From assembly GCF_054482525.1 (NCBI RefSeq), contig NZ_CM137006.1: a DNA stretch of 64,000 bases; one strand, written 5' to 3'. The notes beneath the pieces are model-generated. The model had not been told where the DNA came from and searched no databases. It saw nothing but the letters and a program-made list of their open reading frames with translations. Positions 2,961 to 8,349 of this stretch are shown here, one piece after another; position 1 is the first letter of the stretch, and every line of letters starts with the position of its first letter. The position numbers and the translations under genes were made by a program.

Positions 2961-4184
2961 TTATGGGATTATATTCTGGTAATGATTTGATAAGCGAATT
3001 CTTTTGCCAGTTGGTATTTCTATTTCCACCCCATAATTTATAGTTTTTTCATCAGGTAGCGATCTCTTTAAATAAGGTGCGCATGACATTTTTTTTGGGT
3101 TAAGCGTCTCGCGTTGAAATACTTCGAATTGATATTCAGACATTTCTGCCCATGTTTGAATTTTATTGTATCGGGAGAGTGTCGTAAAGGCTTTAACTTG
3201 CTTATAACATTGTTTTTTGAATTCTTGCTGATATTTTAATATGTCATTGTATGAAATATTGGTTATCCTGGCCTCTAAGAATTTAATTATTGTCGAAGCA
3301 ATTTCCGCTTTTGCTCGTAAAAAGTTGTCATTAATGGTTAATAATGTTGAAAATAAACCTTCGATTTGTTTGTCAAGATATTGATCGTCTTTATATAATT
3401 TTGGGGTAGGGTGTTCTTTATGTGAAAAAATAGTGTCACCTAAATTTGCGTCAGTGAAATTTATATTAAGTAGATCTTCGAAATAAAACCTTGACAAGGT
3501 TAGAACGAACCCGGACAGGTTCTGTCCTGTCATATTGAAATCAATAAAGTTGGTTCCGGCAAAGACTTTCATCCTGTTTTTATTTTCACTGTGCTTAATA
3601 TATAACTTCGTCATTTTTTGATACAGGTTTTGAATATCTTTTATATTAGTCGGTAAGTCAGCCTGTTGTTCAGCAATAAAATTAGTATCTGAAAACATGG
3701 TTTGGACACTGAATCTTACTGGTATTCCCTCTTCTACGCTAATTTTAGTTATGATTGCCTTGTCGGGTTTAGGATTAGCGACAACAATGATTCGACATTC
3801 AGCACTTTTGTTTTTTTCGTATCTAATGTTATTAATCTGATTAAGTATTGATTGTGTCTGTTGCGTAAGTGGTGTCGAACTTATCGTTTCAATGTTAGTA
3901 ATAAGACTTACAAGTTGAGCCACAACTTTTGAGTAGTCTGCATTTGTATATGTAGTGTTCGTGTGGCACGCATTAATTTGTTGGAGTTGTTGTTGCGCTA
4001 AATCAAATTGTTCAGCGTTATATCCTTCTTCAGACAATGAAAAATTAATGGGTTGCTGTTCTTCCTGATTATCACAAGGCCACATCGGTGTGTCTGGTGT
4101 TTTAACATTGTCGGTATCTGTTGTGCGGTTATAAATATCGCCGTGATATGTATTTATCATACCTGGGGTAAAGTCAATTGACAT
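2961..4184 (-). CDS. yhiS: Uncharacterised AT-rich protein, YhiS-like (intact 407 aa), with a possible pentapeptide-repeat segment
   Basis: Long ORF in a strongly AT-rich block; RBS AAGGA 5 nt upstream of the ATG; position corresponds to yhiS between slp and ars; central segment [42 protein letters not shown] resembles A(D/N)LXX repeats. Confidence 0.6.
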
Positions 4185-4763: not shown

Positions 4764-5765
4764 TTAAAATAGCATTTGAGTCAAATAGCCCATCAAGATA
4801 GCCATACCTAAGATAACCGTCAGGAATGCAACTATCATCGGTATTCTGAACATTGATTTAAGTAATATCACTTCCGTCAGGCTTGCGCCGGCACTGCCGA
4901 TGATTAATGCCATTAATGCTCCCAGACCCATTCCTTTTGTCATCAGAACAGATGCCAGAGGGATAACCGCCTCTGCCCGGATATACAGCGGAATACCGAC
5001 AACGGCGCTCAATGGGATGGCGAAGGGATTATCTGCCCCTGCATGAGCGGCAATCCACTCTGAGGGAATAAAGCCATAAATAAAAGAGCCTATTAATACC
5101 CCTAACAAAAGATATGGCAGTACATCTTTAAACTGTTGCAACGCATCTTTGGTGGCTAGTTTTATGGGATTAATACTTACCACAGCTTTGGTACTGCAAC
5201 AGTTTACTACAGGTTTCTCAATGGCTTTAGCCGCTGGACTACAGCAACTCACTTTTATTGGCGTATATGTCGTCCCCGGCGAAGTTTTGGCTGGAGCACA
5301 ACAATTTGCTGATGAGCTTTTACTGGCAATGATATGACGTTCAAATCCCAGGGAATCCAGGATAATACTGGCAAGTACGGAGACGCCGGCGGCGATAATC
5401 GCGTACAACAAGGTAACTTTCCAGCCAAAGGTCACCCACATTAACCCGACGATAATGGGATTAAGTAATGGGGAAACAAATAAAAAAGTGAGGGTCGGGC
5501 CGAACCCGGCTTTCGCTGACAACAATCCACGTAACATTGGGATTGTCGAGCAACTACAGAACGGGGTAACGGCTCCCAACAGAGCCGCCAGGAGATAGCC
5601 TCTCCCTTTTCTGGCCCCCATCATCTGCTGGATTTTATGGTCTGGCACCTTTTGTCTTATCAGGCTCACACCGGCACTAATCACTATAAACAGCAAGGAA
5701 AGCTCGACGGCGAGAAACACAAACATCTCTGCGGCATCTTGCAGCATCGCAAGCCAACTACTCAT
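4764..5765 (-). CDS. ArsP-like (DUF318/YraQ-type) permease with a TPFCSCS motif; putative organoarsenical efflux permease
   Basis: Multi-TM protein with GAVTPFCSCSTIPMLRGL (motif at 5547-5567) and a loop with three vicinal Cys pairs (NCCAPA, VSCCSP, VNCCST; 5196-5303); start refined to the ATG at 5765 (GAGG 6 nt upstream); divergent from an ArsR-family gene. Confidence 0.65.
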   Translation of the reverse strand: MSSWLAMLQDAAEMFVFLAVELSLLFIVISAGVSLIRQKVPDHKIQQMMGARKGRGYLLAALLGAVTPFCSCSTIPMLRGLLSAKAGFGPTLTFLFVSPLLNPIIVGLMWVTFGWKVTLLYAIIAAGVSVLASIILDSLGFERHIIASKSSSANCCAPAKTSPGTTYTPIKVSCCSPAAKAIEKPVVNCCSTKAVVSINPIKLATKDALQQFKDVLPYLLLGVLIGSFIYGFIPSEWIAAHAGADNPFAIPLSAVVGIPLYIRAEAVIPLASVLMTKGMGLGALMALIIGSAGASLTEVILLKSMFRIPMIVAFLTVILGMAILMGYLTQMLF

Positions 5766-5788
5766 ACGTAACCTCATTGAATAAATCT

Positions 5789-5847
5789 ATATTTCCAGAA
5801 TAATCGAAATAAAATTCAGATCAAGATATTTCTGGTATTATCGAAAT
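5789..5847. promoter_or_regulatory. Two palindromic operator-like repeats in the divergent promoter between the permease and ArsR-family genes
   Basis: ATATTTCCAGAATAATCGAAAT (5789-5810) and ATATTTCTGGTATTATCGAAAT (5826-5847); each is ATTTC-N10-GAAAT. Confidence 0.4.
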
Positions 5848-5872
5848 ATCAACCAGACAAAGGGGGTGTCAT

Positions 5873-6193
5873 ATGCAGTTGGAAGAAGTTGCTAAAGCGC
5901 TGAAAGAGCTAGGTCACCCGACCCGTTTGTTCATATTCAAACACCTGGTCAAAGCGGGGGAACAAGGCTTGCCGGTCGGTGAGTTGCAAAAGCAGCTTGG
6001 GATACCCGGCTCTACACTCAGTCACCATATCTCAGCACTGGTATCGGTAGGGCTGGTCAAACAAAACCGTGAGAGTCGAACGCTGATGTGTGTTTCGCAA
6101 TACGCAATGCTGGAAGCGATAATTGAATTCTTACGCGAGGAGTGCTGCGTAAATAGCAAAACACATGGCGAAGGGGCCACGAAGAACAAATAA
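5873..6193 (+). CDS. ArsR/SmtB-family metalloregulator with C-terminal vicinal cysteines (Cys91-Cys92)
   Basis: 106 aa; HTH region GELQKQLGIPGSTLSHHISALVSVGLV; lacks the ELCVCDL-type site of canonical ArsR but has REECCVNS near the C-terminus; divergent from the permease. Confidence 0.7.
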   Translation: MQLEEVAKALKELGHPTRLFIFKHLVKAGEQGLPVGELQKQLGIPGSTLSHHISALVSVGLVKQNRESRTLMCVSQYAMLEAIIEFLREECCVNSKTHGEGATKNK

Positions 6194-6210
6194 GGGGGCA
6201 TATCCCCCTT
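6192..6210. terminator. Bidirectional terminator hairpin between the convergent ArsR-family gene and arsC
   Basis: AAGGGGG-catat-CCCCCTT flanked by A/T runs, in the 20 bp gap between the two stops. Confidence 0.5.
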
Positions 6211-6213
6211 TAG

Positions 6214-6639
6214 CTATTTCAGGCGTTTACCCGCTTCATCAACCACTTTCTCGCCATCTTCCTTGGTGAACGCGCGTTGTTGCGCATCTGGCAGAATTTC
6301 CAGCACCACTTCTGAAGGGCGGCACAGGCGAGTTCCCAGCGGCGTCACCACAATCGGGCGATTAATCAGAATCGGGTGCTGAAGCATAAAGTCGATTAAC
6401 CGATCGTCAGTAAATTTATCTTCTGCAAGGCCCAGTTCCTCATACGGCTCGACGTTTTTACGCAGCAGCGCGCGTACGGAAATCCCCATATCGGCAATGA
6501 GTTTGACCAGTTCATCACGCGTCGGTGGGGTTTCCAGATAATAGACAATGGTCGGTTCTGTGCCGCTGTTGCGGATCATCTCCAGCGTATTTCGCGACGT
6601 GCCGCAGGCTGGGTTGTGATAAATGGTAATGTTGCTCAT
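6214..6639 (-). CDS. arsC: Arsenate reductase
   Basis: 141 aa ORF starting MSNITIYHNPACGTSRNTLEMIR; last gene of arsRBC. Confidence 0.9.
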   Translation of the reverse strand: MSNITIYHNPACGTSRNTLEMIRNSGTEPTIVYYLETPPTRDELVKLIADMGISVRALLRKNVEPYEELGLAEDKFTDDRLIDFMLQHPILINRPIVVTPLGTRLCRPSEVVLEILPDAQQRAFTKEDGEKVVDEAGKRLK

Positions 6640-7995: not shown

Positions 7996-8349
7996 TTAAC
8001 TACAAATGTTCTTACTGTCTTCGGAACAATTTTGTCGAGCCAAGTTGCGGACAATCACCTGAACCTTTTCCTGTTCGCATCGCCAGGCCTGCTCAATAAT
8101 TTTCGCGGCCCATGATGGAATATGCGGTGATAAGCGGTAATGAACCCACTTACCCTGCTTGCGATCCAGCAATAGCCCACTTTCACGCAGCAATGCCAGG
8201 TGGCGGGATATCTTGGGCTGCGACTGATCGAGGGCAGTGCAGAGATCGCAGACGCATAATTCTCCCAGCTCGCTGAGCAGTAAAACGATGCCCAGACGGG
8301 TTTCATCAGCAAGAATTTTGAACAGTTGGATGGGTAACAGAAATGACAT
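7996..8349 (-). CDS. arsR: Arsenical resistance operon repressor ArsR
   Basis: 117 aa with the metalloid-binding ELCVCDLC motif in the HTH region. Confidence 0.9.
   Translation of the reverse strand: MSFLLPIQLFKILADETRLGIVLLLSELGELCVCDLCTALDQSQPKISRHLALLRESGLLLDRKQGKWVHYRLSPHIPSWAAKIIEQAWRCEQEKVQVIVRNLARQNCSEDSKNICS

Follow-up and report, generated by a model that had tools for sequence, protein, structure and literature searches.

Classical operators of ArsR/SmtB repressors are 12-2-12 imperfect inverted repeats, such as those of SmtB, CzrA and CadC, and the R773 ArsR site. SpArsR of S. putrefaciens 200 is an AfArsR-like repressor without the third cysteine; it recognizes MAs(III) via Cys101 and Cys102 and is unresponsive to As(III) (PMC11868830, PMC13236881). 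A biosensor was assembled from SpArsR (Sput200_1227) and a 222-bp stretch that precedes arsP (Sput200_1226) in S. putrefaciens; this promoter fragment was repressed by SpArsR and induced by MMAs(III), the signal relative to a no-repressor control being 9% with 50 µM As(III) and 73% with 1 µM MMAs(III) (PMC12124457). In AfArsR of Acidithiobacillus ferrooxidans (structure 6J05) the Type 2 As(III) site is made of Cys95, Cys96 and Cys102. NdArsR of Noviherbaspirillum denitrificans HC18 is also MAs(III)-responsive and has a C-terminal CC pair.

The window, i.e. the whole stretch of 64 000 nt analysed here, is a part of an E. coli chromosome with 99.9% identity to strain PCN033. It carries two divergent genes separated by a gap of 107 bp: a permease gene of the PF03773 ArsP_1 family (333 aa, 4764–5765, minus strand) and an ArsR-family gene of the SpArsR/AfArsR type (106 aa, 5873–6193, plus strand) whose product carries a Cys91-Cys92 pair in the C-terminal part. 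In the PGAP annotation of PCN033 both genes have the same starts, the permease coordinates agree with those in the window, and the pair adjoins arsC-arsB-arsR, slp and dctR. We took the permease start as the ATG at 5765 (minus strand) rather than the one at 5777, since PGAP places the start at the former, which is preceded by a GAGG Shine-Dalgarno sequence at 5772–5775; the longer ORF that appeared in the mechanical ORF list (ATG at 5777, 337 aa) is probably not used. Two boxes located in the gap are, as we propose with a probability of about 85%, operators for the repressor encoded at 5873–6193, which would repress both its own gene, arsR, and the permease gene, the proposed regulated target. 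The comparisons described below support characterizing this locus as a previously uncharacterised ArsR/SmtB operator pair in a putative divergent, autoregulated arsR-arsP module of the SpArsR type.

The original prediction placed two 22 bp palindromic repeats at 5789–5847, 37 bp apart between the divergent start codons, and both the repeats and their position were reproduced. The pattern ATTTC-N10-GAAAT has exactly two matches on both strands of the 64 kb window, at 5791–5810 and 5828–5847, with the ATG codons at 5765 (minus strand) and 5873 (plus strand) on either side; in 100 dinucleotide shuffles of the window the mean number of matches was 0.10, and one shuffle of the 100 reached two. The 22 bp repeats are ATATTTCCAGAATAATCGAAAT (5789–5810) and ATATTTCTGGTATTATCGAAAT (5826–5847), with a start-to-start distance of 37 bp. 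Site 1, on the permease side (5791–5810), reads ATTTCCAGAATAATCGAAAT and extends to a dyad TATTTC-N10-GAAATA at 5790–5811; site 2, on the arsR side (5828–5847), reads ATTTCTGGTATTATCGAAAT and extends to ATATTTC-N10-GAAATAT at 5826–5849. The description of the repeats as palindromes holds for the outer arms, to which true palindromy is confined in both sites; the centres are asymmetric. The left arm is ATTTC(C/T)(A/G)G and the right arm is ATCGAAAT in both sites, which have identical polarity on the plus strand.

A repeat search reported the same region as a 37-nt direct repeat (5789–5825 versus 5826–5862, 73% identity), and the two boxes also as mutually complementary arms. Within 5789–5862 the 15 nt that follow each box match at 9 of 15 positions. 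There are hints that the box-plus-spacer unit is an old duplication in the enteric and Aeromonas lineage. In marine lineages the box spacing is 48–52 bp, unlike the 37-nt tandem repeat of the window.

The same boxes were found in the S. putrefaciens system. The 222-bp fragment (PMC12124457, Text S3) holds ATTTCTGGAATTATGGAAAT, an exact match to the dyad. A second box, ATTTCTGGTATTATCGAATT, lies at a distance of 108 bp from the first, with 19 nt between it and the arsR start, and differs from site 2 of the window by a single base in the right arm. Along with the two boxes, the systems share the recognition segment IPGSTLSHHIS of the regulator, the Cys pair (C101/C102 in SpArsR, C91/C92 in the window protein) and an adjacent target of the PF03773 arsP type; they differ in the distance between boxes, 108 bp versus 37 bp. 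In an alignment of 78 residues the regulators are about 54% identical. SpArsR has an N-terminal extension of 10 residues that is absent from the E. coli protein, and this extension places C101/C102 of SpArsR exactly on C91/C92; altogether SpArsR carries the same three cysteines (C83, C101 and C102) as the window regulator. The SpArsR sequence used here is a translation of the gene given in Text S3 of PMC12124457, where a few bases lost in the PDF text have produced a frameshift.

The arsRM promoter regulated by NdArsR (same Text S3) holds ATTTCCAGTATTTTGAAAT, which has the same arms as the window boxes; this system differs in having a 9-bp spacer, a single site and arsM rather than arsP as a target. 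With the classical ArsR/SmtB operators the window sites would share, by analogy, the architecture of an imperfect inverted repeat of ∼20–26 bp, bound by a winged-helix dimer at the core promoter of an autoregulated operon and released upon ligand binding. Unlike the classical operators, the half-site here is ATTTC/GAAAT with a 10-bp spacer, the sites come as two or three separate copies, and each promoter of the divergent pair has a site of its own. A full-text literature search returned no description of an ATTTC-N10-GAAAT operator; the primary papers on SpArsR, AfArsR, NdArsR and ArsP were outside its scope, and earlier footprinting is possible.

A broader claim, to which we would give even odds, is that ATTTC-N10-GAAAT (N9 in Noviherbaspirillum) may be a common operator code of the ArsR clade with the C-terminal CC pair (SpArsR, NdArsR and perhaps AfArsR), and that the E. 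coli pair, together with its plasmid paralogue, may make a sensing-efflux module inducible by methylarsenite or roxarsone.

To see how the dyads are distributed across species we used loci collected by a peptide-pattern scan with one genome per species; 80 loci encoding relatives of the regulator were found, and two further loci were added. Dyads were counted in 81 loci, which come mostly from different species. The permease gene is divergent from the arsR orthologue in about 47 loci of the 82. An exact dyad was present upstream of arsR in 56 of the 81 loci, and a dyad within one mismatch in about 69; about 12 of the 80 orthologous loci had no dyad within one mismatch upstream of arsR. In total, the 250 nt regions upstream of arsR orthologues (20 kb in 81 loci) contained 79 exact dyads, while dinucleotide shuffles of these regions produced 0.115 on average and never more than 2. 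The remaining 461 kb of the same loci contained six exact dyads, so that the density is 3.94 per kb upstream of arsR versus 0.013 per kb elsewhere. Each of the six immediately precedes a permease gene in a non-divergent arrangement with arsR (loci L024, L043, L049, L061, with two dyads, and L067). A dyad precedes the permease gene wherever that gene sits, which supports the suggestion, made in the original prediction, that two copies could serve two divergent promoters. The more general idea that the dyads may be operators of the adjacent dimeric ArsR/SmtB repressor is likewise supported by the comparison across species.

With at most one mismatch, the dyads were observed in Enterobacterales (Citrobacter, Buttiauxella, Hafnia and Pantoea among others), in Aeromonas, in Vibrionaceae (Vibrio, Photobacterium, Aliivibrio and Enterovibrio), in Shewanella, in Colwelliaceae (Colwellia and Thalassotalea) and in Endozoicomonas; the dyad was also found in the alphaproteobacterium Pseudovibrio. 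In most loci the dyad ends 18–25 nt before the arsR ATG. A second, permease-side dyad is usual in loci with a divergent permease gene; the distance from its end to the permease ATG is 14–32 nt in most loci and 44–82 nt in long intergenic regions of the Vibrio type. Only one box is present at solitary arsR genes and in front of arsR-arsH operons (Hafnia L048, Pantoea L068). The spacing between the two sites is variable: 37–39, 48–52, 63–65 or 86–90 bp, with 108 bp in S. putrefaciens. The near-constant distance from site to gene combined with the variable distance from site to site favours one operator per promoter rather than a unit in which cooperation is obligate.

Eight Vibrio loci (L017, L018, L021, L022, L027, L038, L064 and L076) have an intergenic region of ∼200–240 bp with three boxes: a pair spaced by 50 bp towards the permease gene, and a third located 18–23 nt before arsR. 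The middle box of this layout, ATTTCGATAAATATCGAAAT, is an almost perfect palindrome.

In frequency matrices derived from 68 and from 39 non-identical sites, the latter on the permease side, the information is spread over ∼24 positions that read aTATTTC(t/g)(a/g)nTA(t/a)TaTCGAAATAt, and it is close to zero in the flanks. The symmetric arms ATTTC/GAAAT are the most conserved positions, with about 2 bits each. When 11 intergenic regions from enteric bacteria and Aeromonas are aligned, conservation is confined to the two boxes, a −35-like TCAAG block and the regions of ribosome binding and translation start; site 2 is the best conserved block, with 5826–5849 invariant in all 11 sequences. In the sampled E. 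coli chromosomes the 20-bp cores are identical, and the substitutions fall outside the cores.

The regulator has matches to Pfam HTH_20 (1.8e-14) and HTH_5, which assign it to the winged-helix ArsR/SmtB fold, as well as to the NCBIfam model HTH_metalloreg (61.6 bits versus the cutoff of 55). The closest solved structure is that of AfArsR (6J05, E = 3.2e-10). Cys91-Cys92 align with Cys95-Cys96 of AfArsR and with the QCC motif of SpArsR (Cys101-Cys102). In 27 homologues with 62–88% identity C73, C91 and C92 are invariant, as is the recognition-helix segment S47-T-L-S-H-H52 (STLSHH); an invariant recognition helix would match the invariant half-site. The tail after the CC pair, VNSKTHGEGATKNK, has no Cys; thus, unlike AfArsR, the window regulator has no equivalent of Cys102, and this absence predicts, by the logic of PMC11868830, a two-coordinate binding of organoarsenicals rather than of As(III).

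Some homologues from Vibrio, Photobacterium and Desulfovibrio (P0052, P0098, P0099, P0113, P0075 and P0115) have an extra Cys 4–8 residues after the CC pair (ECCVNEQC, CCIDEC, CCSAAPLC), an arrangement resembling that of Cys102 in AfArsR. Judging by this arrangement such proteins might respond to inorganic As(III), in contrast to the regulator of E. coli. In the chromosomes of E. coli A31 and E04 (L083, L084) arsR is annotated with 98 aa (WP_001175589.1); the difference from the 106-aa version of the window and PCN033 is in the C-terminal tail after the CC pair.

The most likely inducer, by analogy with SpArsR, would be methylarsenite or a related organoarsenical. This assignment is extrapolated from the homology to SpArsR (∼54% identity) and from the arsRBC/arsH context: in the window arsC, arsB and a second arsR adjoin the pair, and its plasmid copy is followed by arsH. 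The tblastn searches with E. coli ArsC, ArsB, ArsH and the R773-type ArsR found ars neighbours in Enterobacterales only, other types of ars genes being beyond these queries; in marine loci the pair occurs without E. coli-type ars neighbours. The permease is a clear member of PF03773 (ArsP_1, 2.1e-52, 178.6 bits versus the cutoff of 32.3); still, among the curated NCBIfam models it reached no equivalog, its matches to the SO_0444 Cu/Zn efflux model (108.8 bits versus 300) and SaoE (85.7 versus 325) being sub-threshold. Given the marine loci without ars neighbours and the permease without a curated equivalog, the inducer and the substrate are the weakest steps of the model.

It could be, then, that the operators are as described, with a regulator that senses inorganic As(III) or Sb(III), or that reacts to persulfides or to oxidants of thiols in the manner of BigR and SqrR, and with a permease that has a different substrate. 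A third invariant Cys (C73) in the regulator family would be in line with such a scheme, as would the marine loci and the weak sub-threshold NCBIfam similarity of the regulator to BigR and of the permease to the two models named above. Against it stand SpArsR, a reportedly MAs(III)-selective repressor in which all three cysteines are shared, and the enteric copies of the pair, which adjoin arsRBC or arsH. We consider a different inducer unlikely, though a possibility to be taken seriously.

With methylarsenite or a related organoarsenical as the preferred inducer, the control could work as follows. Without inducer, one repressor homodimer would bind each 20–24 bp dyad (aTATTTC-N10-GAAATAt, with the right arm TCGAAAT), and each dyad would cover positions from about −20 to −1 of one of the two back-to-back promoters. 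At site 2 the repressor would lie over the extended −10 element TGgTATTAT of the arsR promoter, thus providing autoregulation, and at site 1 over the −10 element of the permease promoter (TATTCT, minus strand). The bound repressor would block RNA polymerase, i.e. act by promoter occlusion; we infer occlusion from the fact that each box holds a −10-like hexamer facing its adjacent gene. A thiol-reactive trivalent arsenical bound to Cys91-Cys92 would release the repressor, and the permease gene and the repressor gene would be switched on. The two sites would act independently, one operator per promoter.

The geometry of the dyad would agree with this picture. In the arms, the invariant C lies 11 bp from the invariant G; judging by ArsR/SmtB–DNA complexes, such a spacing would suit two recognition helices placed in successive major grooves, with the wings on the A/T-rich outer arms.

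One may suppose instead that the two boxes act cooperatively as a single unit, with a tetramer or a DNA loop repressing both promoters jointly. The boxes do lie within a 37-nt tandem repeat and the spacings do fall into narrow classes (37–39 and 48–52 bp); moreover, the putative −35 of the permease promoter is immediately adjacent to site 2, and each site could thereby act on both promoters. However, the spacings of 37, 39, 49, 50, 63, 65, 87 and 108 bp (the latter in S. putrefaciens) keep no single helical phase, and at solitary arsR and arsR-arsH loci a single box is enough. Joint repression seems to us rather improbable, and we keep the reading with two independent operators.

The promoter elements considered above were assigned as follows. 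In site 2 a putative extended −10 of the arsR promoter (5833–5841, plus strand) consists of TG (5833–5834), one base and TATTAT (5836–5841); the start of arsR transcription would then be near 5848, with a 25-nt leader. The motif TGnTATTAT is kept in 11 of 11 close relatives, and the central hexamer in the 68 non-identical sites has the composition T93% A99% n T88% a76% T100%, so that T1, A2 and T6 are retained at 93–100% in distant relatives as well. In site 1 the hexamer TATTCT (5797–5802, minus strand) is the likely −10 of the permease promoter, which would start transcription near 5790, also with a 25-nt leader; within 39 permease-side sites A2 of the hexamer is conserved in 97% and T6 in 85%. 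The putative −35 of this promoter, TTGATC (5819–5824, minus strand), is located 16 nt from the −10; its counterpart in both Aeromonas and the IncF plasmid copy is TTGACC. Immediately to the left of site 2 the alignment of 11 sequences shows a conserved (G/A)TCAAG block. The promoter scan listed other candidates with 9/12 matches and did not list the permease promoter that we chose (8/12); we kept the assignment because its −35 and −10 are the ones conserved in the alignment. All of these −10 and −35 elements remain putative, having been assigned from consensus matches only.

A second promoter facing arsR could conceivably lie further upstream, at 5777–5804 (plus strand; TTGAAT, 16 nt, AATAAT; 9/12 in the scan). 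Its −10 would be inside site 1, and the plasmid copy reads TTGACA-16-AATAAT; in the Aeromonas sequences of the alignment this promoter is absent as a conserved feature.

The presence of a −10-like hexamer in each box and the overlap of the boxes with sigma-70-like scan matches raise the question whether the boxes are conserved merely as core promoter elements (an A/T-rich −10, UP-like sequences) with no repressor bound. Several observations argue against this. The best conserved positions are the outer arms ATTTC/GAAAT, which do not belong to the sigma-70 consensus; the boxes are symmetric dyads with a spacer fixed at 10 bp and accompany a single regulator family in distant taxa, features that mark the sites of DNA-binding proteins acting as dimers; and the homologous S. 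putrefaciens fragment was shown to depend on the repressor (PMC12124457). We consider conservation for promoter function as such very unlikely.

Slightly less credible still is binding of the boxes by another protein, either a global regulator or the R773-type ArsR encoded by the second arsR gene at 7996–8349. This gene is located 2 kb from the boxes, and cross-talk of ArsR paralogues is conceivable. Yet in about 70 box-bearing loci of the SpArsR type neither an R773-type arsR nor arsBC is located within 3 kb, and the ATTTC-N10-GAAAT pattern is absent from the arsRBC promoter region, as well as from the rest of the window.

Finally, a chance feature of an A/T-rich intergenic region, to which one could point given that the orthologous upstream regions average 62% A+T, is virtually out of the question, as an artefact of composition is rejected both by the shuffles (79 dyads versus 0.115 expected in composition-matched sequence; 2 versus 0.1 in the window) and by the within-locus control (upstream regions versus the other 461 kb).

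The reading of the boxes as operators of the adjacent SpArsR-type repressor gives a base-level operator model for a regulator-permease pair that we found in about 2220 of 5426 complete E. coli genomes, i.e. about 40%. E. coli K-12 lacks the pair, which has hence been unstudied in this species. The pair is now linked to SpArsR, called the only characterised methylarsenite-selective repressor. The consensus derived from about 100 sites can be used to find further targets, and the operator model could guide design and tuning of organoarsenical biosensors. If the shared operator code is true, organoarsenical regulons would be readable from genomes by the motif alone, and a compact native E. coli promoter would become available for biosensors. 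With all this, we are dealing with ordinary bacterial gene regulation, and the concept of the action of ArsR/SmtB repressors is unchanged.

A paralogous pair with ∼84% identity is present in about 800 plasmid records, mostly of conjugative plasmids. In this version arsH is located 100 nt downstream of arsR and the permease is longer, 377 aa (e.g. L001, 3001–5374, in IncF plasmid p14EC029c). The hosts are E. coli, Salmonella and Klebsiella, many of the listed sources being chicken, pig or turkey. In two aligned plasmid copies site 1 has a degenerate left arm (GTTTC or TATTC), and site 2 is identical to the chromosomal sequence.

The permease contains the TPFCSCS Cys pair, the importance of which in ArsP was reportedly demonstrated by Chen et al. 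in 2015. Besides this motif it has a central Cys-rich hydrophilic loop with three CC pairs (NCCAP, SCCSP and NCCST). The plasmid version has a longer loop, and marine orthologues of ∼300 aa have a shorter one or none.

We also considered a structured RNA in the intergenic region. A search against Rfam with permissive thresholds over 5500–6300 gave one match only, at a chance level and outside the intergenic region, and this candidate was rejected.

At the other end of arsR, a GC-rich hairpin AAGGGGGCATATCCCCCTT at 6192–6210, seen in the terminator scan and in the sequence, separates the stop codons of the convergent genes arsR (6193) and arsC (6214); it is a probable two-way terminator closing the arsR transcript. 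On the permease side, between slp and the permease gene, there is an ORF of 407 aa (2961–4184, minus strand) with no Pfam match; the corresponding region of PCN033 is annotated by PGAP as a frameshifted hypothetical protein.
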